DNA of 12,945 nucleotides from Candidatus Heimdallarchaeota archaeon B3_Heim (GTDB lineage Archaea > Asgardarchaeota > Heimdallarchaeia > Hodarchaeales > Hodarchaeaceae). This document shows positions 620 to 12,945 of this stretch, one piece after another. How positions within the stretch are numbered: the stretch's first letter is position 1; the number at the start of each line of letters is the position of its first letter. The notes beneath the pieces were generated by a model. That model was given only the letters and a program-made list of their open reading frames with translations. It did no database searches and was not told the origin of the DNA. The stretch is from the NCBI GenBank assembly GCA_003144275.1, contig NJBF01000067.1, positions 1-12,945 of the forward strand, given 5' to 3'. Position numbers and translations under genes: made by a program.

Positions 620-670
620 ATGAAAAATCGTAAAAAGAACGGCCAGTATACTGGTTCATTGCTTGGCTAA
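620..670 (+). CDS. Small 16-aa basic peptide MKNRKKNGQYTGSLLG; putative precursor/scaffold peptide of the cluster
   Basis: ATG 620 to TAA 670 with a weak SD (GGA at 610-612). Not in the ORF track. Lys/Arg-rich N-terminus, followed by a hairpin and then CgnB/E-like genes. Confidence 0.6.
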   Translation: MKNRKKNGQYTGSLLG

Positions 671-691
671 TTTCAGTTAGTTAGTACAAGC

Positions 692-726
692 TGAGGTCGG
701 CTTTGCCCGGCCTCAATTAGTTTTTT
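692..726 (+). terminator. GC-rich hairpin plus offset T-tract downstream of the small ORF (leaky terminator or mRNA-stabilising stem)
   Basis: TGAGGTCGG (692-700), loop CTTTGC, CCGGCCTCA (707-715): 9-bp stem with one G-U pair, then ATTAG and TTTTTT (721-726). Confidence 0.6.
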
Positions 727-828
727 AATTTTAGGTTGTTACATTGGTATGTAGTTGCAACAGTCTTAGCGTCTACACATCTTTGTACCATCTTAGATTT
801 TTTAGCCTCACAACAATAAAGGGATGTT

Positions 829-1917
829 ATGAAAACGATCATTGTTAACCCTGATGATATTGTTTCATTGGGAGACGATGGGGCAGAGGGTTTTTATTTA
901 GTAACCAACACTCCTTACTTAGAAAACTTTTCTCTAGGTGCGTCAAATAAGTATAAACACACTGAAATATTGTCTTGCGATGCTCAAGACAATTTCATCG
1001 AAAAAGTTCTTGGCAATATTCCAGAATCTAGCTGTGTATTAACCATAATGCCTGATTGCCTTGTAAAATCTGTTCCCTCAGAAGTACTAGGTAAGCGAAA
1101 ACTCCTAATTATGGCTTGCAGATCCGGTAAAACAGGGTTAGACGGAATCGAGCATTTTCTCAACTGCACCGCAAACTTCGATATAGATAGACAAATTGAG
1201 GCTGGCGAATCTTTTTTTGACAAAGGAGAGAAAAGTCAGTATCTCGAACTCGTAAATCATCGGCAAGGTGCAAGTTGTCGCTTTGAACATTTGAATGAAA
1301 TATATGAATGGCATGAGCAATATGGTCGTGTTGAGTGGAATGAACAGCAAGTCTTCCCATCAGGTGAGATTGCTTGCTTTTTAGTTCCTTTGTATATCGA
1401 AAAATTGTCTGAAAACACTAGGTTTGATTTGAATGGTGAAATCATTATGGAAGGTCCAGTCATTGTTCAATCTGGTCCACCATCTTTCCAACTAAAAGAC
1501 CAACTTAACATCCACGATGCACTGACAACTGAAGAAGGAAGTGGTGTAAAGCTCACAATCAAAAGTGGGGAAATTATAAAACATGAACCGGTCAATGAAT
1601 CAGGACAAAAAGCGGCAGATATGTTGTCAAGCTTGTTCGCTGTCGACTCACGCTTTCGGACGATATATGAAGTTGGATTTTCGCTCAATGAATCAATAAA
1701 ACTATGGCCGGGGAACACAGCGATGAATGAAATTTGGGGTGGTTCAGGTGGTCGGCTTCATCTAGGTCTAGGTATGCTTCCTCATACTCAATATCATATA
1801 GATGCCTTTTGCGCAAACACTCAAGTTAAAACAGATTCAGGTGAAGTCATATTTGGGCCTAGAGCTAAAAGCATGAATAGAAGGAAAAGCTCTCATTGTC
1901 CATGTGTAGAATTATAG
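829..1917 (+). CDS. M29/leucyl-aminopeptidase-fold metalloprotein, CgnB/CgnE-like, paralog 1 (362 aa)
   Basis: SD AAAGGGA upstream. Motifs WHEQ..PSGEI, YEVGFSLN, AMNE, LHLGLG and HID correspond to the Glu/Glu/Glu/His/His/Asp metal ligands of the M29 fold. Extra C-terminal tail MNRRKSSHCPCVEL. Confidence 0.75.
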   Translation: MKTIIVNPDDIVSLGDDGAEGFYLVTNTPYLENFSLGASNKYKHTEILSCDAQDNFIEKVLGNIPESSCVLTIMPDCLVKSVPSEVLGKRKLLIMACRSGKTGLDGIEHFLNCTANFDIDRQIEAGESFFDKGEKSQYLELVNHRQGASCRFEHLNEIYEWHEQYGRVEWNEQQVFPSGEIACFLVPLYIEKLSENTRFDLNGEIIMEGPVIVQSGPPSFQLKDQLNIHDALTTEEGSGVKLTIKSGEIIKHEPVNESGQKAADMLSSLFAVDSRFRTIYEVGFSLNESIKLWPGNTAMNEIWGGSGGRLHLGLGMLPHTQYHIDAFCANTQVKTDSGEVIFGPRAKSMNRRKSSHCPCVEL

Positions 1918-2961
1918 GTGCAAGGGATTATGACATTTCAATTAGACGTATCAAAATTAGATAATTTTGGAGAGATCTCGGGAGCAGATTTCATCTTGGT
2001 GACAACTGATGAACTCGCTAGCAAACTAGATTTAGTGGATACAAAAAAAGCTTACTCATCGCTTATTAAAGAATGTGTGACAAACTACAACCAATTTGAA
2101 GAAGCGCTTAGCTCCAAATTTCCAGAAAAAGCTCACATCTTGGTAGTTTTACCGTCAATATATGTAGCTTCCCCTCCCCCTGAAGTTTTAGGTAAGTACC
2201 GCAAACTTGCAACACTTGCGTGTTTTTCTACCCCCACTTCAATTGAGTCGATATTTCATTTTCTTGAGCAGGCAACACGCACAGATTCTGCCATGCAAGA
2301 AAAGATTGCAGATCGCTTTTTCGAAGTAGGTGAATCTGCGAAACACATCAAATTTGTAAACGAAGAATATGGAACTTCAGCAGTATTTAAACATTTAAGT
2401 GATGACCTTACATGGCATGAGCAAATTGGGAAGCTAGATTGGGGAGAGCAACAACTACTGCCTTCTGGAGAGGTAAGTACTCTTCCTGTATCTGTCTTCG
2501 GTGAAGATATAAAATCAAAATTGGACCTGAATGGTGAAATCCTATTGAAAGGGCAACCTGTTTTACATGCTGGCAACGTGTCCTTTTTGAGAAAAGATCA
2601 AGACCGAATTTTTAATGCTCTCAACTCAATAACTGAACATCCCCTAAAACTTGAAGTTAAACAAGGAGAGATCCAACACGTTACTGCAATCAGCTCAAAA
2701 GGAAAGGGTTCAGCTGATATGCTGAACGCATTATTCGATGTTGACTCTCGATTTAGGACTATCATCGAATTAGGCTTTGGAATAAATACAAATCTTGAAT
2801 TGTTTCCCGGAAATCAAGCAATGAACGAGGTGTACGGAGGAAAATCAGGGGTAATTCATTATGGAATAGGCCTTTTGCCCTTTACACAATACCACATTGA
2901 CTTTATTTGTCCTGATACCAGAGTTATGGATAACAATGGAATTCCTCTAGTGGGCGAATAA
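1918..2961 (+). CDS. M29/leucyl-aminopeptidase-fold metalloprotein, CgnB/CgnE-like, paralog 2 (likely true start ATG 1930)
   Basis: Same motif series: WHEQ..PSGEV, IELGFGIN, AMNE, IHYGIG, HID. Aligns block-wise with 829-1917 (DLNGEI, DMLxxLFxVDSRFRTI). SD AAGGGA precedes ATG 1930. Confidence 0.75.
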   Translation: MQGIMTFQLDVSKLDNFGEISGADFILVTTDELASKLDLVDTKKAYSSLIKECVTNYNQFEEALSSKFPEKAHILVVLPSIYVASPPPEVLGKYRKLATLACFSTPTSIESIFHFLEQATRTDSAMQEKIADRFFEVGESAKHIKFVNEEYGTSAVFKHLSDDLTWHEQIGKLDWGEQQLLPSGEVSTLPVSVFGEDIKSKLDLNGEILLKGQPVLHAGNVSFLRKDQDRIFNALNSITEHPLKLEVKQGEIQHVTAISSKGKGSADMLNALFDVDSRFRTIIELGFGINTNLELFPGNQAMNEVYGGKSGVIHYGIGLLPFTQYHIDFICPDTRVMDNNGIPLVGE

Positions 2962-2962
2962 A

Positions 2963-4135
2963 ATGGAATACGAATTAGAGCAAGAGATTAACAATTACAA
3001 ATCATACTTCGATTTAGATGGTTATCATTATCTAAACTGCGCATACATGGGCCCCTTGGCTACTTCGACCAAAAATGAAGGAATTGCCGCAATAGAAAGA
3101 AAAACTAACCCCAAATATGTAACGAAAGAACATTTTTTTTGCCATTCCACCGAAATTAGGCAACGTTTTTCTAAGCTTATTAACGAAGACGAGCCGAGTT
3201 CAATAGCAATAATCCCTTCCGTTTCCTACGGCATGTCGATAGTAGCTAATAATGTTGATATCCGGGAAGGTCAAAAAATCATTGTTGTCGCGGATGAGAT
3301 GCCTTCGAATTATTATATTTGGTATAGGTTAGCCAAAGAGAAACACGCAGAACTCGTTGTTATTGATAAACCATCCGATGCTAATGTTCGTTCAGATGAA
3401 TGGAATCAAACCATACTATCAACTATCTCCGATTCTACTGCGATTGTATCAATTCCAAATGTACATTGGTTAGATGGTTGCCTTTTTGATCTAGCTACTA
3501 TCAGCAAGAAGATACATGAACATGGAGGCCTGTTGATTGTCGACGGAACACAATCAATAGGAGCATATCCATTTGACAATAAGATAATCAGGGCCGATGC
3601 GGTTGTGTGTGCGGGATACAAATGGCTACTCGGTCCCTATGCTATTAGTATAGCTTACTTTTCTGAAAAGTTTTGGAAAGGCAAACCGCTTGAAGAAGGA
3701 TGGTTGAATAGAAAAAATAGCAACGATTTTGAATCTCTAACAAATTATCAGGATCAATATCGGGAGGGGGCGATCAGATTTGATATGGGTCAATCAAGTA
3801 ATTTTCTTAATGGTCCGATGTTAGCAGACTCTCTAAAAAATACTGAAATTTGGACCCCTTCAAAAGTGTCTGAACATTGTGCTTCGCTGAATAGCTTATT
3901 GGTGCAAGAATTATGTGATGTGCCGATTAAAGTATTAGCTGAAGATCAGAGAGGGCCTCATTATGTTGGTTTAGAAATAGACCCAATACTCTTGGAAAAA
4001 ATCGGACCTAAATTTTCAGACAACAACGTTTCTGCGTCAGTAAGAAACGGAAATATAAGAGTTACTCCGCACATATATAATGATATCGAGGATATCAAAG
4101 CTCTCGTTAAAGTTGTAAGAAGTTCTTTAAAATAG
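2963..4135 (+). CDS. Aminotransferase class-V fold PLP-dependent enzyme (lyase/epimerase-like; probably not a cysteine desulfurase)
   Basis: YLNCAYMGP, VDGTQSIG, PLP-lysine motif CAGYKWLLGP (K220, codon 3620-3622) and RVTPHIYN. No Cys in the segment before RVTPH. Starts 1 nt after the previous stop. Confidence 0.85.
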   Translation: MEYELEQEINNYKSYFDLDGYHYLNCAYMGPLATSTKNEGIAAIERKTNPKYVTKEHFFCHSTEIRQRFSKLINEDEPSSIAIIPSVSYGMSIVANNVDIREGQKIIVVADEMPSNYYIWYRLAKEKHAELVVIDKPSDANVRSDEWNQTILSTISDSTAIVSIPNVHWLDGCLFDLATISKKIHEHGGLLIVDGTQSIGAYPFDNKIIRADAVVCAGYKWLLGPYAISIAYFSEKFWKGKPLEEGWLNRKNSNDFESLTNYQDQYREGAIRFDMGQSSNFLNGPMLADSLKNTEIWTPSKVSEHCASLNSLLVQELCDVPIKVLAEDQRGPHYVGLEIDPILLEKIGPKFSDNNVSASVRNGNIRVTPHIYNDIEDIKALVKVVRSSLK

Positions 4136-4212
4136 GTTTGTTAAAATTTTAACCTAGAGGCTTCTGGAATCATTTTAGCACCAATTTTATAGGCAATTCT
4201 TAAAGTAAAACT

Positions 4213-6159
4213 TTGGACAATTTAATCGCGGCAAACATTATGGAAAAAAAAATCTTTGGCTCAGTTATTCCAGCGCCTAACCCAACCGGTGAATTGCATT
4301 TAGGGCACTTCCTCAACCTTTCGATTCAAGATCTTTTTTGTAGATGGCGGAGAACACAAGGTTGTGATATCAAATGGGCACTTGCATTAGATCATGGAGG
4401 TTCATCCACTGAATACGTTGCCACCAAGAACGATAAAAATTACATACAAAACTGCTCAGACAGAAAGTATATCTCAAATAAAATAACATCTTGGGTTGAC
4501 GGTATAACCCCAACAATACTCGAGCAGATAGATAAAATGAACTTGATCATTGATAGCGATGAGTTTAGATCTATGGCTGACAGTAAACGTGAGTATGAGT
4601 TTTTACAGTTCATTTCTCAAATGGCAAAAAGTGGAACAATATACAAAAGTGACCGTGTAATACCGTGGTGTACTGACAGACAATCTTTTGTAGATATTGC
4701 AGATATAGTGAAAAGTGAACATACAATTTACAAATATTCATTAATTTATAAAAGTGATGAAAACGAAAAGATAACTATAGATTCTGAAGACTTAAGTCTA
4801 TTGCTTAATGAAACAATAATTTTGATGTCAGAAGATTTTTATCAACGTTTACATGGTTCGCCTAAGTTTATTACAAACCCGCTCGGAGAAAATATAAAAA
4901 TAATTGTAAGTGATAAATTAATTTCCTTATTTTCTGGTAAAGAAATTGTAAGCATAACTCCGGGCCATTGTATTAATTCTTATTTCATATCTTTATATCT
5001 CAACGAAAAGATAAGTAGGGCTTTTAACGAAGGAGGCTATATTGAAAAAGAAGGTGAATACTTCAAAGTTCATAAGGAAGATGTAGAAAAAAGGCTATTA
5101 GAAGTTCTCCAATCTAGCAATCTTGTGAGTAAAATTCAGAAGTTAAATGTCATGGCAGATACATTTCGACTCAGTGGAAAGCGTGTCGAAAGTTTGCTTT
5201 CTAGGCAATGTTTCTTTGATGTCTCATCTCTAGCAAAAGATGCTTTAGAAAAAATAAGGAAAGGCACTGTCGATATAAAGCCTTCGCTATACAAACAAGC
5301 CTTAGAAAATTACTTAGAGGAACTTAACAAACCAGTCTTTCAATCTTTCAATGAGAGCGTATTTCTTAGAGATATTTGTATTTCTCAACAACTAGTATGT
5401 GGTACGGACTTTTCGTTAAAATCAGAAGAATTACGCTTCAAAGGAGACAAGTATCTTTTGGAAACCCAGATACCAAAAGAGGAAGTATACGTTGCAACAA
5501 TGAGGCTGTCTTGTGCTTTGTGGGCATTTTCGGCACAAATGGTATATGAAAAAGAACAAGCTAAATTAGAAAACTTAGGACAAAATAGTGTGTGTGTTAC
5601 AGGTATGGATCTGACAACGTTTTGGATTGCACCTATTTTGATGATGTCAGATGAAATTGGGTTCGCTCCATTTAAAACAGTTTACATACACCCTTTAATA
5701 ACCGATACAAAAGGTCGAAAAATGAGCAAGAGTTTTGGAAACACTGAAACTCCAGATACATTGATTGACAATTATGACGTTGATTCTGTAAGGCTATCAC
5801 TTTTCCTGTCCATAGATAACTCACTTCATAGGGTTATCGTAGACAAAAGTAAAATCGACTCAGTTCACCGCAACTTAAAAGATTTTAGAGAAAAGATTGT
5901 TTCTAAAACTACAGATAAGGAAAAATTCGAAATAGATTCATTAATAAATTCAAGTACAAAAGTAGTAAATGAATCTTTGCAAGTTAGCGATATACAAAGA
6001 GCTTCATCAGAAATAGAACAACTATTGAAAGCTGTAATAAGTAATCAAAACACCCTTTCAAAAAGACAAGTTTTTGATATTGCTAATGTGATAGAACCAT
6101 TTCTTCCTGAAACATCAGAATTTCTAAACCATAGCCTTGAATCTACATTAAAGGATTAG
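4213..6159 (+). CDS. Divergent, C-terminally shortened class Ia aminoacyl-tRNA synthetase paralog (ValRS-like); alternative start ATG 4240
   Basis: PNPTGELHLGH (HLGH 4297-4308) and GRKMSKSFGN (KMSKS 5719-5733). ValRS-like blocks LDHGG, ITPGH, ICISQQL, LSCALW, VTGMD..FW and PFKTVY. About 140 aa follow KMSKS. Confidence 0.85.
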   Translation: MDNLIAANIMEKKIFGSVIPAPNPTGELHLGHFLNLSIQDLFCRWRRTQGCDIKWALALDHGGSSTEYVATKNDKNYIQNCSDRKYISNKITSWVDGITPTILEQIDKMNLIIDSDEFRSMADSKREYEFLQFISQMAKSGTIYKSDRVIPWCTDRQSFVDIADIVKSEHTIYKYSLIYKSDENEKITIDSEDLSLLLNETIILMSEDFYQRLHGSPKFITNPLGENIKIIVSDKLISLFSGKEIVSITPGHCINSYFISLYLNEKISRAFNEGGYIEKEGEYFKVHKEDVEKRLLEVLQSSNLVSKIQKLNVMADTFRLSGKRVESLLSRQCFFDVSSLAKDALEKIRKGTVDIKPSLYKQALENYLEELNKPVFQSFNESVFLRDICISQQLVCGTDFSLKSEELRFKGDKYLLETQIPKEEVYVATMRLSCALWAFSAQMVYEKEQAKLENLGQNSVCVTGMDLTTFWIAPILMMSDEIGFAPFKTVYIHPLITDTKGRKMSKSFGNTETPDTLIDNYDVDSVRLSLFLSIDNSLHRVIVDKSKIDSVHRNLKDFREKIVSKTTDKEKFEIDSLINSSTKVVNESLQVSDIQRASSEIEQLLKAVISNQNTLSKRQVFDIANVIEPFLPETSEFLNHSLESTLKD

Positions 6160-6162
6160 TAC

Positions 6163-7083
6163 ATGAAATGTTTTATTTCGGGCTTAAAATATGAAATCGG
6201 CGATATTTTTGATATAGATGAGCTTTTAGTGAGTCCTGAAGTTACTGAATCAGATATCAAAAGGTTTAGAAACCTTGGGTTAAAAAATTATTCAAAATAT
6301 GAAGGATCTCTAGCAAGCCTATATGTGAAGTCTATTTCAAGTTCAATTGAATCTAGCGGTTTCATACCAGAGTCAATTGACGCGGTTATTCCTAGTGTAA
6401 TGACAGACTCTACGCCTGAAGATGATATGGAAATGTGGAAGGCTCTACATCAGTCAGGTCTAAACTCTCCGGCGGTTTTTGGGCTAGGCTGTCAAGAGTC
6501 AGCAACATTTGGAGGGGCAATTGATTTAGCAAAGAATCTTGTCAAGTCAGGTTCTTATAAAAGAGTACTAATATTAGTTGGTGCCATACGTAATAGCATA
6601 AAAGATAGAGTTACTCTTGGAGGTGAGACTATAGTAAGTGACGGAGCAGCGAGCTGCATTGTTTCGGATCATCCTGCTCAGTTCGAAATACTATCAACAA
6701 AAGTCATATCGAACCCCAAAAAAGCAGCTTCTTACAAGAGCGACCTTAGTCATGGTTTCATGATTGATGAATCTATAAGAATGATATCGGAAATCTCGAA
6801 ACTCCTTTTAGGCGAAGCAAATTTAAAATCATGTGCTATAGATAAACTTTTTTGTACAAACGCCAATGACCCCATATATACAATGTTCTCGCACTTTTCA
6901 AATATTGACGATCATAAAGTTATTAAAGAAGGGCTTAGAAAATACGGTCATGTAAATTTATGCGATAACGCTGTAGATATCTCATCTAAAATGCAATCAG
7001 GCGGCATTTCAATGGGAGAGAACTTAATGCTGCTTAATTGGGCAAGAAACCTTTTTTCAGGTGTTTGTCTGAGATACCTATGA
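6163..7083 (+). CDS. 3-oxoacyl-ACP synthase III (FabH/thiolase-fold)-like protein with a non-canonical active site; probable carrier-protein-dependent acyltransferase
   Basis: FabH-like blocks IDAVI, FGLGCQESATFGGAIDLAKNLV, RVLILVG, SDGAASCIVS, LFCTNAN and YGHVNLCD. Ser113 sits at the usual Cys position, with TNAN for HQAN and GH for GN. Confidence 0.8.
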   Translation: MKCFISGLKYEIGDIFDIDELLVSPEVTESDIKRFRNLGLKNYSKYEGSLASLYVKSISSSIESSGFIPESIDAVIPSVMTDSTPEDDMEMWKALHQSGLNSPAVFGLGCQESATFGGAIDLAKNLVKSGSYKRVLILVGAIRNSIKDRVTLGGETIVSDGAASCIVSDHPAQFEILSTKVISNPKKAASYKSDLSHGFMIDESIRMISEISKLLLGEANLKSCAIDKLFCTNANDPIYTMFSHFSNIDDHKVIKEGLRKYGHVNLCDNAVDISSKMQSGGISMGENLMLLNWARNLFSGVCLRYL

Positions 7084-7086
7084 CTA

Positions 7087-7332
7087 TTGATAGGCTATGG
7101 AATTGATATGAAAAACGTGCTTAGAAATATTTTTAAAGAACATTTGAGTCAAAATAACATTAATGATACTTCGAATTTTTTTGACCTTGGGGGAGATTCA
7201 CTCTCAGCAGTCTTATTATTAATAAAAGTAGAAAAAGAAACTGGCATTAAAATACAAAATGAGCAGTTTTACGCAGAACCTACGATAAACGGCCTTACAG
7301 AAATATGTGAAAAAAAGAACGAAAATAAATAA
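7087..7332 (+). CDS. Stand-alone phosphopantetheine carrier protein (PCP/ACP); likely start ATG 7108
   Basis: NFFDLGGDSL (Ser codon 7198-7200) and FYAEPTINGL match the NRPS T-domain pattern FFxLGGxSL...FxxPTIxxL. Confidence 0.9.
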   Translation: MIGYGIDMKNVLRNIFKEHLSQNNINDTSNFFDLGGDSLSAVLLLIKVEKETGIKIQNEQFYAEPTINGLTEICEKKNENK

Positions 7333-7374
7333 AAATCCCCTAGGAATAATTACAAATGAATATATCAAACCTTT

Positions 7375-7398
7375 ATAGATTACGTAGCTATAATCTAT
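7375..7398. promoter_or_regulatory. Dyad ATAGATTA-N8-TAATCTAT, candidate operator upstream of the efflux genes
   Basis: Perfect 8-bp inverted repeat (7375-7382 and 7391-7398) in the 176-bp intergenic gap. Confidence 0.3.
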
Positions 7399-7508
7399 TA
7401 TGCCCACTTATATATACTTACATGGACAGTTCTTATGAAAGTAATTTTTTTAGAACAAATTTTTTACATCATTACGAAAACGCTGTTTCCTACTGGTAAT
7501 TTCTAAAA

Positions 7509-8534
7509 ATGAAATTTACTGCTACCAGAGTTTTTACTATATCTTCGATTCTTATAGCGGCTTTGGTATTTTTTTTGGCAGAACTTCCCAAAGAGCTTGA
7601 TTTATTTGAAAGGGTTGGGACTGATAATGCTTATGTCCATGGTCATCTCTTTCACATTGGCAGCCCAATTTCAGGAATTGTCGAAAAAGTATACGTTAGT
7701 GAATTTGATTCTATCAAAGAAGGTCAGTTACTAGTAAAACTATCTGATAAGGAGCTGATAGCTAGTTTGGAAAGAACAGTTTTGGAACTAGATGTGAATA
7801 ATCAAGCAATAATTTCTTTAGATTCTGATGAAGCTCTTCAAAAGAAGATACTTGAGCAAGCTCAATCAAACCTTAAAGGTCTAAAAGAGCTGTCCGAGAT
7901 AGTAAACAGGGAAAGAAGAAGGTCAGAAGAGTTATTTAAAAGTAACGCACTTGGACAGTCGGACTTTGATGCTGCCACATTTAGAGCCAAAGAGTTGGAA
8001 AATGAGATAAAAGATGTTAGCGCACAGATTGATATAGAGTCAGCAAAGCTACAGGTTATTTATAGCAGAAAAGCCATGTTAGTCGCAGAGGGGGAAGTTC
8101 TCAGGAAAAATATTGAAGTAAAAAAGTACAACATCAATAAACTTAACATAGTAGCACCATATGAAGGAACCATTGGTAGATTACATGTTCATAGTGGTTC
8201 TTGGGTTTCAGAGGGTGACAATGTTCTATCAATTGCTGACAGTTCTGCACTTTGGGTTGAAGCTAACTTTAAAGAGTCTCAATTATTAGAAATTTCAATT
8301 GGAGACGAAGTATACATTTATGTTGACGCTATCCCTGATAGGAAGCTCTTTGGTTCAGTAAAACAAATTTCTCCAGCAACAGCTTCAGAATTTAGTTTCC
8401 TGCCCTTGAGAAAAAACTCTGGGACTTTTACCAAAACTATACAGAGAGTGCCTGTCAAAATCTCAATTGATGAAGATAACTGGAAATCAAGACTTAGAAT
8501 AGGCATGTCAGTAGAAGTGGAACTTAACAGGTGA
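7509..8534 (+). CDS. HlyD/EmrA-family membrane fusion (periplasmic adaptor) protein
   Basis: N-terminal membrane anchor, TDNAYV, lipoyl-like motif ISGIVEKVYV...GQLLVKL, coiled coil, IVAPYEG, LWVEANFKESQL and FTKTIQRVPVKI. Confidence 0.92.
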   Translation: MKFTATRVFTISSILIAALVFFLAELPKELDLFERVGTDNAYVHGHLFHIGSPISGIVEKVYVSEFDSIKEGQLLVKLSDKELIASLERTVLELDVNNQAIISLDSDEALQKKILEQAQSNLKGLKELSEIVNRERRRSEELFKSNALGQSDFDAATFRAKELENEIKDVSAQIDIESAKLQVIYSRKAMLVAEGEVLRKNIEVKKYNINKLNIVAPYEGTIGRLHVHSGSWVSEGDNVLSIADSSALWVEANFKESQLLEISIGDEVYIYVDAIPDRKLFGSVKQISPATASEFSFLPLRKNSGTFTKTIQRVPVKISIDEDNWKSRLRIGMSVEVELNR

Positions 8535-10111
8535 CTTCGCATAATTCGAGTGACAATGAACCAATCATTACTTCGCTCAGACGTACGATTGGTTTTTTTT
8601 TCATCTTGTTAGGGATGTTTGCTGCATTTTTTGATACTTATGTTACTCTCTCCATCTTCCCTCAAATTAGCGCTTCTCTTGGGGCATCTATCGAAGAAGG
8701 AAGTCGAGTCCAGTCATCATACTTGATTGCTGAAGTACTAATGATTGGACTGAGCGGCTATCTGGTTAAAAGAATGTCTCTAGCTTTCGTATTCTCCGTA
8801 TCATCGATTTTATTTTCTGTAACAAGCTATTTATGCGCTCTAGCAACCAGCATTGATCAACTAACCGTGTGTAGGTTTATACAAGGCCTCGCGGGCGGCG
8901 CTATGATCCCAACAGCATTTTCTGCAATTTATATTCTTTACAACGCAGACAAACATGCATTAGTTGGTGCGATTGCTGGCGCAATAGGAACACTAGCCCC
9001 TACACTCGCTCCTTCATTCGGTGCATATGCCGCAGAAGTATATGACTGGCGAATCATCTTCTATATAAATATATTCCCTTTGATAATAGGTGGTTTCGTT
9101 GTCTATTTAGCTTTCAAATCCGAAACCAATAAGAATCGTCCAAAATCAGAGGAAACGTTCGACTACCAAAGTTTCTTGTTTCTAATAGCGTTTGTTTTTT
9201 TAATACACTATGTCATCGATAATGGGTTGGAAAAGGGTTGGCTCGAATCTCGGGGAATATTTATATCGATAATTTTTCTATTTTTCTTATGTGTTTCCTA
9301 CCTTAATTTTTTCAGCAGAATAAATAACCCTTTAATTGAATGGCGTGTTTTTAAGAGTCAATACTTCATGTTCGGTACGGTTGTGATTTTCTTTTTCAAC
9401 TTAATTCACATAACAACATCTTTTGTGATATCAAGCTATTTTGCTGATATTGCGGGTATGGGGTCGGAATATATTGGCAAAGTTTTGCTTATTGTAGGCG
9501 TGTTTCAAATTCTATGTTCACCGATAGCTCCCTATCTTGCAAGCAAGATAGGCTATGAGACAACGTTAATAACAGGTTTAGTAGTACTTTTTCTATCTAT
9601 TGCTATTGATATAAATATTACTGACGAGTGGACGATCAACGATTTTTTCTTTTCGCAAGCCCTTAGGGGCTGTGTTTTTATGATTATTGCAGTTTCAGCC
9701 CAAAATCTTGCTATGAGTATGCTTCCACGCGATTTGATTAGCGACGGGAGTACAGTAATGAATATGTTTAGGGCTTTAAGCGCAGGCATCGGCATCGCTG
9801 CTATTACTTCTTCGTTGTTGTATTGGAAAGATAAATATTATTCGGATACTACTATTTTCTTAGATTCTCAAAAAACAAATAACGCTTATCAATTCATCAA
9901 CAATTCTATAATTCGCTCCGAAAATCATATAACACCCATCGAAATAGAAAGATATATAGCATATCGGGTAGAAATAGATTCGTCAGTTTTGGCATATTCA
10001 AATACATTTTTTGGTTTAGCAGCCCTAACATTTTTATTATGCCTTTTTTCTGCGCTTTTCTTGATTTTCGTTAAAACGAAAAGTTTAAAGTCTGGCAAGG
10101 TACTTATCTAA
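8531..10111 (+). CDS. EmrB/QacA-subfamily (DHA2) MFS efflux transporter
   Basis: 526-aa polytopic hydrophobic protein with SYLIAEV, CRFIQGLAGGAMIP, PTLAPSFG and WRIIFYINI. GTG start overlaps the HlyD stop (GTGA). Confidence 0.92.
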   Translation: MTSHNSSDNEPIITSLRRTIGFFFILLGMFAAFFDTYVTLSIFPQISASLGASIEEGSRVQSSYLIAEVLMIGLSGYLVKRMSLAFVFSVSSILFSVTSYLCALATSIDQLTVCRFIQGLAGGAMIPTAFSAIYILYNADKHALVGAIAGAIGTLAPTLAPSFGAYAAEVYDWRIIFYINIFPLIIGGFVVYLAFKSETNKNRPKSEETFDYQSFLFLIAFVFLIHYVIDNGLEKGWLESRGIFISIIFLFFLCVSYLNFFSRINNPLIEWRVFKSQYFMFGTVVIFFFNLIHITTSFVISSYFADIAGMGSEYIGKVLLIVGVFQILCSPIAPYLASKIGYETTLITGLVVLFLSIAIDINITDEWTINDFFFSQALRGCVFMIIAVSAQNLAMSMLPRDLISDGSTVMNMFRALSAGIGIAAITSSLLYWKDKYYSDTTIFLDSQKTNNAYQFINNSIIRSENHITPIEIERYIAYRVEIDSSVLAYSNTFFGLAALTFLLCLFSALFLIFVKTKSLKSGKVLI

Positions 10112-10157
10112 CGTCTAAATTTACAGGTTTTATTTAGGGCTTTGAAGGATCAATAAA

Positions 10158-10583
10158 TTGAAATATTCTTCCAATTGTTCATGTGTCTGTGTGAAATTAG
10201 AACTCCAATTACCTCAAGTAATTGCATCTTACAACCCACGAGAGTGCGATTGTAGTTTTTGTAAGAAACGTAGTTTAAGATATCTTTCAGACAAATCAGG
10301 AAAGCTTGTCATTAGGACTGGCTTACAACTCTGTCAATCCAAGCAAGGATCCAAGCAGGCAAATTTTATCAGTTGTTCAAATTGTGGTGATGTGGTTGCT
10401 GTTACTTTCTCCTCACTTGAAGGATTGAAAGGGGCGGTCGTAGCAAATTTATTTGAAGAAAAATTCAAAATAGGTAAACCTATAAGTGTTTCACCTAAAC
10501 TGTTGACTCCAGAAGAAAAACGCATAAGGTGGACGTCGCTATGGCTAACAGTTGATATCCATGAGGATCAAGTTTTTGTTTGA
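10158..10583 (+). CDS. GFA/CENP-V (Mss4-like, aldehyde-activating) Zn-binding protein
   Basis: Cys pattern CSC...CDCSFC...CSNCG in 141 aa. TTG start 46 bp after the MFS stop. Confidence 0.8.
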   Translation: MKYSSNCSCVCVKLELQLPQVIASYNPRECDCSFCKKRSLRYLSDKSGKLVIRTGLQLCQSKQGSKQANFISCSNCGDVVAVTFSSLEGLKGAVVANLFEEKFKIGKPISVSPKLLTPEEKRIRWTSLWLTVDIHEDQVFV

Positions 10584-10621: not shown

Positions 10622-11455
10622 TCAGGACACTTTTCTTAAGGAACTTTGTTCATACTCTACTGGCGACAGATCACCATTAGCTGTATAAAGTCGTTCTAAG
10701 TTGTAATAGCGCATATACACTGTTACATCGTTTCTCATATGCTCACGAGTTGGCTGTGGCACTTTCAGCAACCAATCATGTTTTAAACTGCCGAAGAATC
10801 TTTCAACAACAGCGTTATCCCAACAGGATCCAACATCGCCCATGCTAGCTCTCATACCATAGTTAGCTAACAGTTTACGATAATGTTTGCTGGTATATTG
10901 TGACTCTCTGTCAGAGTGAAACACTAAGCCTTTTGGAGGCTGACGTAAGTTATAAGCTTTAATCATTGCCTTGCTAACCAAATCAGTCGTCATCCGCTTA
11001 TCAATATGCCAGCCGACGATACGGCGAGAGTATAAGTCCATCACAATGGCTAGATACATCCAGCCTTCGCCAGTTCTCAAGTACGTCACATCACCAGCCC
11101 ACACCTGATTGGGCGTAACAGGGTTAAAGTTCTGATTCAGCAGATTATCTGCAACAGCATCATTGTGTTTACGTTTGGTTGTCACCTTGTAAGCCACTCG
11201 TTGAGTCACTTCTAGACCAAGTATTGCCATTAATTTCTGAACGCCATAATCACTGACGCTAAAGCCCTCACTGAGTAACTTCTTTCTAAGCTCACGATAA
11301 CCTAAGCTATTTCGGCTTCTCTTAAATATAGCCTTGGCTCTTCGATACAAATTAAGCTGCTCAGCGGTGATGATTTTAGCTGGCCGTTTAAGCCAAGCGT
11401 AATAAGCACTGCGACTTACGTTCATAATTTTGCAGAGCTTAACTACGGGAAACAC
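10622..11455 (-). CDS. IS3-family transposase OrfB (DDE domain)
   Basis: PNQVWAGDVTY, YLAIVMDLYSRRIVGW, FHSDRESQY and WDNAVVERFFGSLK; all three D-D-E residues are present. Confidence 0.93.
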   Translation of the reverse strand: MFPVVKLCKIMNVSRSAYYAWLKRPAKIITAEQLNLYRRAKAIFKRSRNSLGYRELRKKLLSEGFSVSDYGVQKLMAILGLEVTQRVAYKVTTKRKHNDAVADNLLNQNFNPVTPNQVWAGDVTYLRTGEGWMYLAIVMDLYSRRIVGWHIDKRMTTDLVSKAMIKAYNLRQPPKGLVFHSDRESQYTSKHYRKLLANYGMRASMGDVGSCWDNAVVERFFGSLKHDWLLKVPQPTREHMRNDVTVYMRYYNLERLYTANGDLSPVEYEQSSLRKVS

Positions 11456-11484: not shown

Positions 11485-11784
11485 TTACTTGGTTTCCTTT
11501 AGCAGGAGGGCGCTGGCCTTTTTTAAGACTTCTTTTTCCATCCTTAGCTCTTTATTTTCCTTGCGTAGCCTTAACAGCTCAGCTCGCTCATCTGAATTTG
11601 AACTGGCACCAGATTGCTCTGCTTCAACTTTAGCTTTCCAGTTATAAAGTAATTTATCTGTGATACCTAAAGACGCTGCTGCCTTTGGTACGCTATAGCC
11701 TTGCTCTGTTACTAATGCCACAGCTTCTTGTTTAAATTCTGCTGTGTAACTTCTGTTTGTTCGTTTTGTCATTTCACACCTCAA
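11485..11784 (-). CDS. IS3-family transposase OrfA (HTH)
   Basis: RSYTAEFKQEAVALV...AAASLGITDKLLYNW...ELLRLRKENKELRMEKEVLKKAS. The ATG of MTKR (11770-11772) may be the real start. Confidence 0.92.
   Translation of the reverse strand: MRCEMTKRTNRSYTAEFKQEAVALVTEQGYSVPKAAASLGITDKLLYNWKAKVEAEQSGASSNSDERAELLRLRKENKELRMEKEVLKKASALLLKETK
11518..11524 (-). promoter_or_regulatory. A AAA AAG programmed -1 ribosomal frameshift site of the IS3 element
   Basis: The minus strand reads TTA AAA AAG GCC in the orfA frame. The -1 frame (KKGQRPPAKGNQVTFKTIKQLSSVFP) is open into orfB. Confidence 0.8.
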
Positions 11785-12095: not shown

Positions 12096-12573
12096 TTGGA
12101 GAGACAACATGAGGCTAAGAAGTGTAAGATGCCGGACATAACAGTTACTTATTTAGAGCTGGGGCTGGAACAAAAGTGGAGTCCAGAACAAATAGCTGGC
12201 GTGGGTAAAATCGTCGGTCAGTTGGTAAGCCATGATTGGATTTATTGCTATTTACAACGCGATAAACTAACAGGTGGCAGACTTTATAAAAGGTTGCGTC
12301 ACGGTCGGCGTTAATACAGTAAAAGCAGTCGCGGGAAGCGTGTGATTAGTTCAAATCGCGTTGGCGAAGCGTGTCGCCCCGCTATCGTGAACAAGAAGAA
12401 ACGGTTCAGCAATTAGTAAGCCGATACAGTTTTAGGTAAGCAAGGAACATGCGCGATTGTCAGCCTTGTCGAGGGAAAAAGTAAACTATATCTGGTAAGG
12501 AAAAGTGTCAGCGAAAAGCGCGGCTGATGCCGCCAAGGCTATGGTTAGTATGCTGTGGAAATACCGGAGCCAC
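12096..12573 (+). pseudogene. Decayed, truncated IS30-family transposase fragment
   Basis: KWSPEQIAG...VSHDWIY...LYKRLRH, then stop 12312-12314, NRVG..RPAIVNKKKRF, SN**ADTVLGKQG (stops at 12414-12419 where GDWExDT is expected), a frameshift near 12500, and SAAD.AKAMVSMLWKY. Homology ends before the DNG motif. Confidence 0.85.
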
Positions 12574-12792: not shown

Positions 12793-12945
12793 TTACAAAT
12801 TTTGCTCTGTAAACTGAGCCAGCGAGCTTCGCTCTACCTCGTCAAATATCAGGACACTCCCCTTATCATAATTACGATATACGTTAACTGCCGCTGTAGC
12901 TCCACTAGACGCGGGAGTTACAAACTTGTCGTCAATCTGAGCTAA
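12793..12945 (-). pseudogene. phoH: 3' end of the PhoH-like fragment
   Basis: Reads ...DKGSVLIFDEVERSSLAQFTEQNL* with TAA at 12793-12795, in frame with 128-391 when the ends are joined through the 127-bp overlap. Confidence 0.85.
12819..12945. repeat. Terminal direct repeat, right copy (identical to 1-127)
   Basis: Exact match to bases 1-127. Confidence 0.95.

Follow-up and report, generated by a model that had tools for sequence, protein, structure and literature searches.

A conserved 16-residue peptide, a CgnB/CgnE-like pair and a truncated valyl-tRNA synthetase paralog in a candidate biosynthetic gene cluster

What could be made by an operon that joins a 16-residue peptide to a paralog of valyl-tRNA synthetase (ValRS) and a stand-alone peptidyl carrier protein (PCP)? 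This question is raised by ten closely spaced genes, all on the + strand, at positions 620-10583 of contig NJBF01000067.1, which belongs to the assembly of Candidatus Heimdallarchaeota archaeon B3_Heim (GCA_003144275.1) and whose full length of 12,945 nucleotides is the window analysed here. We favour, with moderate confidence, the answer that they form a real and conserved biosynthetic gene cluster, as yet uncharacterised, that makes and exports a small molecule derived from the peptide, and in which a core of the type found in peptides made by the ribosome and modified after translation (RiPPs) is coupled to a carrier-protein aminoacylation module. The listing of open reading frames (ORFs) and their translations gives the following genes.

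620-670, + strand: peptide gene, 16 amino acids (aa), precursor or scaffold; conserved upstream of CgnB/E-like genes
829-1917, + strand: CgnX1, CgnB/CgnE-like protein of the M29 fold, 362 aa; paralog of CgnX2
1918-2961, + strand: CgnX2, CgnB/CgnE-like protein of the M29 fold, 347 aa (343 aa from 1930 according to other gene callers); PF26231 and AlphaFold2 (AF2) fold
2963-4135, + strand: pyridoxal phosphate (PLP) enzyme of the class-V aminotransferase fold, 390 aa; PF00266, E 3e-25
4240-6159, + strand: truncated ValRS paralog, 639 aa from ATG 4240 (TTG 4213 possible, ORF 4213-6159); valS TIGR00422, HIGH and KMSKS motifs
6163-7083, + strand: protein resembling beta-ketoacyl-acyl carrier protein synthase III (KAS-III), 306 aa, Ser replacing the catalytic Cys; PF08545 and TIGR00747
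7108-7332, + strand: stand-alone PCP, 74 aa (81 aa from TTG 7087, ORF 7087-7332); PF00550, E 3e-14
7509-8534, + strand: EmrA-type periplasmic adaptor, 341 aa; HlyD_D23 and HlyD_3
8531-10111, + strand: EmrB-type efflux permease of the DHA2 group of the major facilitator superfamily (MFS), 526 aa; TIGR00711
10158-10583, + strand: GFA/CENP-V-like Cys-rich protein, 141 aa (start 10191 according to other callers); ESM Atlas match and Cys pattern

The first-pass annotation of this DNA had described ten co-directional, tightly coupled genes, and the ORF list reproduces that layout in full, with intergenic gaps of 0, 1, 3 and 3 nt and a GTGA overlap shared by emrA and emrB (8531-8534). The last of these gaps requires the TTG start at 7087, and the ATG at 7108 is the likelier start of the PCP. 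The family calls of the annotation are likewise recovered by Pfam and NCBIfam, namely Aminotran_5, class I tRNA-synt_1 with ValRS as the best match, ACP_syn_III, PP-binding, HlyD/EmrA and MFS/EmrB. It had also proposed that these genes work as one system, and they do keep company elsewhere: the trio of ValRS-like, KAS-III-like and PCP genes recurs in loci L008 and L009 at 41-43% identity, and L116 and L117 repeat the order peptide, CgnX1, CgnX2, PLP enzyme, ValRS-like gene and GFA-like gene, with ValRS-like proteins that are 26% identical to that of the window. Since the same set recurs in such diverged loci, its composition goes far beyond chance.

The 16-aa ORF is a real gene. It ends 158 nt upstream of CgnX1 and encodes a peptide with a Lys/Arg-rich N-terminal half (Lys/Arg at positions 2, 4, 5 and 6) and an invariant C-terminal half that ends Tyr-Thr-Gly-Ser-Leu-Leu-Gly. 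The comparison set consisted of 80 loci retrieved with the CgnX (CgnB/E-like) family, which were searched by tblastn of the window proteins and by six-frame scans. Peptide matches over 16 of 16 residues were found in cyanobacteria, and these identical copies share 38-44 of 51 nt with the window, which leaves 7-13 differences, all of them synonymous because the 16 residues are kept. The gene is, by this pattern, under strong purifying selection. Identical or near-identical peptides are encoded upstream of CgnB/E-like genes in L013, L014, L015, L016 (3 copies), L018 (7), L019 (6), L036, L042, L068 and L116; Mastigocoleus has 2 copies, Nostoc PCC 9305 has 3 and Nostoc linckia 7 in tandem, and Iphinoe has 6. 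The peptide also precedes the paralog pair in Sessilibacter corallicola and in metagenome-assembled genomes (MAGs) of Holophagae, Pyrinomonadaceae, Frankiaceae and Planctomycetota, and near-identical copies occur in Acidobacteriota, Planctomycetota and Proteobacteria.

A related peptide is present in 70 of the 80 CgnX loci, 69 of which have a short ORF ending Tyr-x-Gly-x-Leu-Leu-Gly; the remaining one is L042 on Cylindrospermum plasmid3, with a version 39 aa long. The C-terminal Leu-Leu-Gly is invariant across the family. A second subfamily, ending Tyr-Leu-Gly-Thr-Leu-Leu-Gly, is found in dozens of Streptomyces, in other Nostoc and in Proteobacteria (L020-L090; for example at 11111 in L020 and at 13186 and 13330 in L077), and in the Streptomyces loci it is encoded between the two CgnX genes. 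The peptide and the CgnB/E-like unit make up a large cross-phylum family that is able to stand alone, which the first-pass annotation had overlooked.

The surroundings of the second subfamily have features of their own. Its recurrent neighbours are a weakly Haem_oxygenas_2-like protein, a 260-aa protein without an assigned family, DUF2817, an aldehyde dehydrogenase and a semialdehyde dehydrogenase, joined by an amino-acid kinase, SDR and EamA proteins. The smallest versions of the peptide unit are those of L088 (8802-12535), where a LysR regulator and a GFA-like gene accompany the peptide, its only CgnX and an AzlC-type exporter, and of L082 (3633-5852), with the peptide, a single CgnX and an AzlC-like gene.

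CgnX1 and CgnX2 are paralogs (39% identity, E 5e-85). Neither matches a Pfam or NCBIfam model in local searches, even at E<=10; PF26231 (CgnE_B) has a precomputed match to CgnX2 and to some relatives, and a match marked 'weak' to the L116 ortholog of CgnX1. Among PDB sequences, no CgnB or CgnE match was obtained by phmmer of CgnX1 and CgnX2, and a 30-sequence family profile matched no PDB sequence of any kind at E<=1. The AF2 model of CgnX2 (pLDDT 94.2) has CgnE as its best Foldseek match (6zsu, E 4e-13, TM 0.62/0.69), then CgnB (6zsv), followed by the M29-fold dioxygenase NicX and the M29 aminopeptidases AmpT, PepS and AmpS. It is this predicted fold, together with the precomputed Pfam match, that suggests the link to CgnB/CgnE. 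CgnX1 and CgnX2 each keep the six family-conserved sites H-E-E-H-H-D. The 12 loci that show this pattern all have it in both of their copies, and the second CgnX of the Tyr-Leu-Gly-Thr-Leu-Leu-Gly subfamily is degenerate (Y-K-E-N-A-A and similar). These six conserved His/Glu/Asp positions are putative metal ligands. In the tree, CgnX1 falls in a starred X1 clade with the first copies of Sessilibacter, Pyrinomonadaceae, Frankiaceae and cyanobacteria. The pair must have arisen by an old duplication, since the first gene of the window groups with first genes from other phyla and the second gene with second ones.

In crocagin biosynthesis, a short precursor whose leader is rich in Lys/Arg is bound by the M29-derived proteins CgnB and CgnE, and one copy per pair, in this case CgnE, has lost its metal site (PMC10070186). 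The window resembles this system in having a short precursor that is rich in Lys/Arg towards its N-terminus and functional at its C-terminus, and in its two adjacent paralogous M29-derived proteins without extra domains, whose fold is closest to CgnE and CgnB. However, the identity in structural alignments is only 14-17%, and the family profile does not reach CgnB/CgnE by sequence. The window pair, in which both members keep the conserved His/Glu/Asp pattern, does not fit the crocagin-type expectation of one degenerate metal site per pair. The window peptide ends Tyr-Thr-Gly-Ser-Leu-Leu-Gly instead of the Tyr-Trp of crocagin and contains no Trp, and the window has no CgnC-type dioxygenase; CgnD hydrolase, methyltransferase and carbamoyltransferase are absent from it as well. 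Peptides of the window type are also absent from the mined peptide lists of PMC10070186.

The second half of the proposed system depends on the ValRS-like protein, which scores 229.8 bits with the valS model TIGR00422 against a cut-off of 612.1; a housekeeping ValRS is encoded on another contig of the same assembly. The HIGH motif (HLGH, residues 20-23), Asp51, which is the Asp that holds the alpha-amino group, and the KMSKS motif (494-498) are all kept and are invariant in nine paralogs. Residues of the ValRS pocket, among them the 'FW' motif's Trp, are retained as well. The AF2 model aligns to Thermus thermophilus ValRS (1gax) over residues 31-696 of 862 (Z 29), and about 165 C-terminal residues of ValRS (697-862), presumably the anticodon-stem-binding domain and coiled-coil arm of the T. 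thermophilus structure, are absent. Pfam Anticodon_1 was not detected in paralogs P0001-P0009 and no Val_tRNA-synt_C match was recorded for them. The CP1 editing motifs are replaced, and the 'TTRPET' of ValRS has no conserved counterpart in the paralogs. At another point of the confidently modelled CP1 domain, the universally conserved editing-site Asp of the ValRS 'TPAHD' is Cys244 in the 'TPGHC' of P0001-P0007 (window 4960-4971, residues 241-244), which places a conserved thiol at the spot that binds the aminoacyl group during editing in class Ia enzymes.

A first scan of genome contigs with the ValRS-like protein found no relative. A profile search of 1.84 billion representatives returned only a handful of truncated paralogs before ordinary ValRS, and its longer matches are ordinary ValRS with extensions. 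All 15 truncated paralogs form one long-branched clade (SH-aLRT 100) of proteins of 608-709 aa beside bacterial ValRS, and the clade is derived from ValRS. A complex prediction for the ValRS-like protein and the PCP ended with 'no answer' (score 0.05), which speaks neither for nor against their interaction.

Gene context is more telling. Among the twelve contexts of the clade that were inspected, a carrier protein is adjacent in six (the window, L008 and L009, the latter two both with a KAS-III-like gene, L120, L121 and beside P0301) and fused in a seventh. Furthermore, in sister clusters with the same peptide the position of the ValRS-like gene is occupied by a type II thioesterase and an A-T didomain of adenylation (A) and thiolation (T) domains in Nostoc, or by C-A-T proteins, which add a condensation (C) domain, in Iphinoe and Holophagae. 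Both observations fit the earlier proposal that the ValRS paralog acts in place of an A domain.

The individual contexts are diverse. L120 (1481-5268) has the ValRS-like gene, then a small carrier protein, then an MBOAT gene, in a Dlt-like layout, and in L121 (1294-5307) the companions of the ValRS-like gene are a carrier protein and a flavin oxygenase of the HpaB family. Peptide and CgnX genes are missing from both loci. On plasmid3 of Cylindrospermum sp. NIES-4074 (L042, 3373-7275; AP018272), a 1300-aa protein annotated as 'condensation domain-containing' comprises a C domain, a circularly permuted ValRS-like domain (the KMSKS half, then the HIGH and CP1 half) and a T domain, and adjoins the same peptide, CgnX pair and PLP enzyme. 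A search for other fused proteins with C, aminoacyl-tRNA synthetase (aaRS) and T domains found, among the 120 best matches, only the Cylindrospermum protein itself. In a Planctomycetota MAG (L068, 12183-14477), the gene immediately after the CgnX pair is LeuRS-like, encodes 764 aa and includes editing and anticodon domains; next come PhyH, a protein of 157 aa that contains a PCP, a thioesterase and a C-A-T protein. PhyH dioxygenases are present in some of the sister clusters, and the Nostoc clusters also carry a GCS2-type carboxylate-amine ligase and a PhyH hydroxylase. The units of L013 and L042 lie beside large genes for nonribosomal peptide synthetases (NRPSs). Finally, the ValRS-like P0006 of L010 (131-11614) is 32% identical to the window protein and has among its neighbours a methyltransferase, a B3_4-domain protein and an M20 peptidase, as well as a protein of 833 aa whose N-terminal part faintly matches lanthionine dehydratase (LanB); this could be a tRNA- or PEARL-like setting.

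The KAS-III-like protein matches PF08545 at 33 bits and the fabH model TIGR00747 at 54.9 bits against a cut-off of 292.1, and the closest solved sequences are ordinary FabH (E 4e-9 or weaker). The FabH residues Cys112, His244 and Asn274 are replaced by Ser113, Thr232 and His263, and the replacements are the same in the three diverged orthologs of the window, L008 and L009. Because the catalytic triad of FabH is lost, acyl transfer is a likelier function than decarboxylative condensation, in line with the role of transferase that the first-pass annotation had assigned. CerJ, ChlB6 and DpsC are proteins of the thiolase/KAS-III fold that move an acyl group from a carrier to an acceptor without malonyl condensation, and DpsC has Ser in place of Cys. 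The window protein resembles them in its predicted fold, and DpsC in its Ser; an aminoacyl in place of an acyl cargo would be unusual. The PCP is recognised by PF00550 at 53.3 bits (cut-off 20.8) and has a GGDSL motif with Ser31.

The PLP enzyme gene follows CgnX2 in L011, L015, L017, L036, L042 and L116 as well. Its closest solved relatives, SufS and C-DES, align only over residues 64-246, and Lys220 and Arg366 are invariant; we take Arg366 to be the carboxylate-binding Arg that is typical of enzymes acting on free amino acids. A role as cysteine desulfurase or in sulfur transfer was considered and rejected: the region of the SufS catalytic loop is shortened and without Cys, no Cys occurs after residue 318, and TIGR01979 gives 77.6 bits against 475. 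With the catalytic Cys loop of SufS absent, the enzyme is not a desulfurase. The GFA-like protein has no local Pfam or NCBIfam match, even at E<=10; its assignment comes from the ESM Atlas (feature score 0.96, TM 0.93 to PF04828 clusters) and from Cys 30, 32, 35, 73 and 76, which form CxCxxC and CxxC motifs. Homologs occur in the sister clusters L116 (27% identity, E 2e-8) and L088 and in seven Nostoc loci. EmrB scores 253.6 bits with TIGR00711, above the cut-off of 230.2, and EmrA reaches 182.6 bits with TIGR00998, below the cut-off of 390.8, with clear HlyD domains.

Two candidate control elements flank the peptide gene.

504-531, + strand: promoter-like site, TTTACA-16-TAGTAT, 9/12 consensus match; weak, such sites being no commoner than in shuffled sequence
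692-715, + strand: terminator- or attenuator-like hairpin with T-run, 9-bp stem with 6 G-C pairs, directly 3' of the peptide gene

Sites of hairpin plus T-run are in excess (3 found, 0.1 expected), and Rfam and tRNA scans of the whole window found no Rfam family and no tRNA gene.

Taken together, these observations, which establish the genes with their folds, motifs and conservation as well as the repeated synteny, suggest the following route. That the PCP is loaded, with which amino acid and for what acceptor, that metals are bound and what is produced are inferences. The 16-aa peptide would be made in excess from its own promoter, helped by the attenuator hairpin behind its gene, and its Lys/Arg-rich N-terminal half would be bound by CgnX1 and CgnX2, by analogy with CgnB and CgnE. 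The invariant C-terminal half would be the part that is modified, with the class-V PLP enzyme helping. The ValRS-derived enzyme would adenylate an alpha-amino acid, probably a small aliphatic one, and load it onto the phosphopantetheine arm of the 74-aa PCP, which is the job of an A domain. The KAS-III-like protein, with Ser113 and without the residues for decarboxylation, would then pick up the aminoacyl group on the PCP and attach it to a hydroxyl or amine of the intermediate that derives from the peptide, as a C domain does. Further tailoring may fall to the GFA-like zinc protein, and EmrAB would export the product from a diderm host.

Several observations weigh against this coupling. The peptide, CgnX1, CgnX2, PLP enzyme and MFS genes occur on their own in Sessilibacter (L036) and in L011, no activation enzyme lies near the L015 unit either, and the ValRS-like gene with a PCP occurs elsewhere with quite different partners; since the modules are separable, their adjacency in the window could join two pathways. 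In L116 the end of the contig is reached without a KAS-III-like gene or a PCP, and in L068 it is a near-full LeuRS-like gene that occupies the ValRS-like position. In the model of the ValRS-like protein, the CP1 fold is still present, and five helices form a bundle that can be aligned with the one by which MetRS and ValRS bind the anticodon; because both are retained, tRNA binding is possible, a point that the first-pass annotation had missed. The carboxylate-binding Arg of the PLP enzyme would fit a free amino acid substrate better than a peptide. In addition, the window genes include neither a phosphopantetheinyl transferase nor a dedicated protease, and since an IS3 element abuts the final gene, the cluster may be cut short.

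The alternatives turn on the substrate of the ValRS paralog and on the purpose of the peptide. Extra aaRS copies in biosynthetic clusters are often resistance genes, SbzA being one as well, and the ValRS paralog might accordingly be a self-resistance copy in an otherwise ordinary RiPP cluster. This reading was rejected and retains hardly any weight: at 230 bits against a valS cut-off of 612, with about 165 C-terminal residues and the editing residues lost, and as a member of a separate, long-branched paralog clade of 608-709 aa, such a protein is unlikely to sustain translation. A tRNA-dependent route, by which the ValRS-like enzyme charges a tRNA or uses an aminoacyl-tRNA as SbzA does and the PCP carries a separate acyl group for the KAS-III-like protein, draws on the retained class Ia fold with CP1 and helix bundle, on the LeuRS-like gene with editing and anticodon domains after the CgnX pair in L068, and on the position of P0006 near a B3_4-domain protein and the 833-aa protein with the faint LanB match. 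We nevertheless hold it to be quite improbable. ValRS residues 697-862 are missing, Anticodon_1 is not found in P0001-P0009, the editing residues are replaced, and the route leaves the carrier adjacency or fusion in 7 of 12 contexts unexplained. The precedent is SbzA itself, an IleRS-like aminoacyl transferase that uses Ile-tRNA; it resembles the window protein as a class Ia aaRS homolog recruited to natural-product biosynthesis, but it keeps the full IleRS architecture (PMC12945691), whereas the window protein is truncated and linked to carrier proteins.

As regards the peptide, the unit may instead supply a building block: the peptide, the CgnX pair and the PLP enzyme would yield a non-canonical amino acid or a very short peptide, in that one residue of the 16-mer is modified and then set free by the M29-fold proteins with their metal, and the ValRS-like enzyme, or an A domain elsewhere, would load it onto the PCP for further assembly. 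This is unlikely in our estimate, though it accounts for several features, since M29 relatives are aminopeptidases and both window copies keep the six conserved His/Glu/Asp, the PLP enzyme looks suited to a free amino acid, the L013 and L042 units lie beside large NRPS genes, and in the minimal loci an amino-acid exporter of the AzlC type accompanies the peptide and its one CgnX. The pocket residues of the ValRS-like protein (such as the 'FW' Trp) suggest an ordinary small aliphatic amino acid instead, and the window holds only one PCP and no more assembly enzymes. CgnB and CgnE showed no aminopeptidase activity (PMC10070186); a precedent for a route from RiPP to NRPS is reported in preprint 10.1101/2024.07.12.603347. 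Alternatively, and with rather low probability, the 16-mer may be a reusable scaffold like LysW or the PEARL peptides, on whose C-terminal Gly an amino acid is placed, tailored by the PLP enzyme (and, in sister clusters, by a kinase, dehydrogenase or hydroxylase) and cut off by an M29-fold protein. The whole peptide, beyond a core, is conserved across phyla with Leu-Leu-Gly invariant, as a scaffold would be, and the Nostoc carboxylate-amine ligase and hydroxylase would suit this use. The Tyr-Leu-Gly-Thr-Leu-Leu-Gly clusters also carry an amino-acid kinase, semialdehyde and aldehyde dehydrogenases and DUF2817, presumably a zinc hydrolase, a set that we take to resemble LysZ, LysY and LysK. However, the window has no ATP-grasp or LanB-like ligase, up to 7 tandem peptide genes and an attenuator suit a consumed substrate better, and L088 and L082, with the peptide, one CgnX and an exporter, have no means to supply or attach cargo.

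A broader version joins the scaffold to the ligase and is likewise a long shot. A clade of class I amino acid:carrier-protein ligases would have been recruited repeatedly to replace A domains, with KAS-III-like, MBOAT, HpaB or C-domain partners and in one case as a circularly permuted form within an NRPS module, and the Tyr-x-Gly-x-Leu-Leu-Gly peptides (16-18 residues, at least 5 phyla) would serve as a reusable scaffold system, the amino acid delivered by the PCP being built and tailored on the C-terminal Gly.

The favoured reading, a RiPP-type core with a carrier-protein aminoacylation module, has partial counterparts among known systems. In the Dlt system, DltA is an adenylating enzyme of the ANL family, DltC the carrier and DltB an MBOAT protein. 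L120 shows the same order of adenylating-enzyme candidate, carrier and MBOAT, but its enzyme is derived from an aaRS rather than from the ANL family, and the window has the KAS-III-like protein instead of an MBOAT. LysW is a reusable carrier peptide, and the window shares with LysW and PEARL systems a small conserved ribosomal peptide beside enzymes that normally act on amino acids; unlike them, it lacks a LanB-like or ATP-grasp ligase and includes CgnB/E-like proteins, which are foreign to both. The PEARL scaffold-peptide pathways are those of Ting et al. 2019, cited in PMC12945691. The known amino acid:[carrier protein] ligases are class II SerRS-like enzymes (Mocibob et al. 2010, cited in PMC9437257 and PMC2922099). 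The window enzyme resembles them as an aaRS paralog without tRNA-binding parts beside a carrier protein, and may by analogy use the same transfer from aminoacyl-adenylate to phosphopantetheine thiol, but it differs in being a class Ia, ValRS-derived protein. Two reviews searched on this point name no ValRS paralog, and three papers on aaRS paralogs report no class I carrier-protein ligase. The first-pass annotation had known of no characterised cluster with this combination, and full-text literature searches, with incomplete coverage, likewise returned no counterpart and no description of the system.

The origin of the contig (C73 of assembly G000) bears on the host of the cluster. Its margins hold the following two features.

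1-346, - strand: PIN-PhoH gene, 3' fragment that bounds the island on the left; PF02562
10622-11784, - strand: IS3-family element, OrfB 10622-11455 and OrfA 11485-11784; NF033516 at 306 bits, HTH_Tnp_1

Positions 1-127 repeat exactly at 12819-12945. A 12.8-kb circular plasmid, as the identical 127-nt ends might suggest, was rejected, since contigs from TARA place the island within longer sequence. In the TARA Pacific contig L002 it lies between 580-bp direct repeats (1850-2429 and 14668-15247; 98.6% identical, 12,818 bp apart), and the 127-nt ends of the window are part of this repeat, which covers the 3' end of PIN-PhoH. Of the PIN-PhoH copies in L002, the left one is truncated and the right one is full-length (473 aa), with the cluster and IS3 between them. 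This arrangement would suit an insertion of the Campbell type, or else a unit capable of circular excision, which is possible. A plasmid search with the window matched only the IS3 element, at about 81% DNA identity to IS3 copies on Moellerella and Providencia plasmids; OrfA and OrfB of this element are in different frames. A further 72-aa ORF (12096-12314, + strand), which resembles the remnant of a transposase, has no Pfam match.

The rest of the assembly is of another kind. The housekeeping genes of contigs C88, C21 and C10 are archaeal-looking: a protein from 'Candidatus Heimdallarchaeota' clusters at >=90% with their ValRS, none of the bacterial models for RecA, EF-Tu and RpoB reaches its cut-off, and two EF-1-alpha-like genes are present. 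The window shares no DNA with the other contigs, its tetranucleotide correlation to the bin is 0.937 against a median of 0.989, and it carries bacterial-type EmrAB and IS3 genes. The same proteins are found in TARA Pacific metagenomes and as 'Ectocarpus fasciculatus' entries, and the IS4 that flanks the island in TARA is identical to an Alteromonas IS4. The contig is probably a bacterial, Alteromonas-like island that was mis-binned into a Heimdallarchaeota-like MAG, which the first-pass annotation had overlooked.

If the ValRS-derived enzyme does load the carrier protein, then, to the extent of our searches, no class I enzyme has been described before it that matches the aaRS-like carrier-protein ligases of class II. 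It would represent a natural substitute for the adenylation domains of NRPSs and a new part for pathway engineering, and it would bear on the evolutionary links between ribosomal and non-ribosomal peptide synthesis. Should the scaffold reading prove true, the peptides would provide a third carrier-peptide logic beside LysW and PEARL. The peptide family probably escapes standard RiPP rules, and a 16-mer that is identical from Nostoc to a marine gammaproteobacterium-like contig, with relatives in 70 of 80 loci including dozens of Streptomyces, points to a widespread and seemingly undescribed product family.

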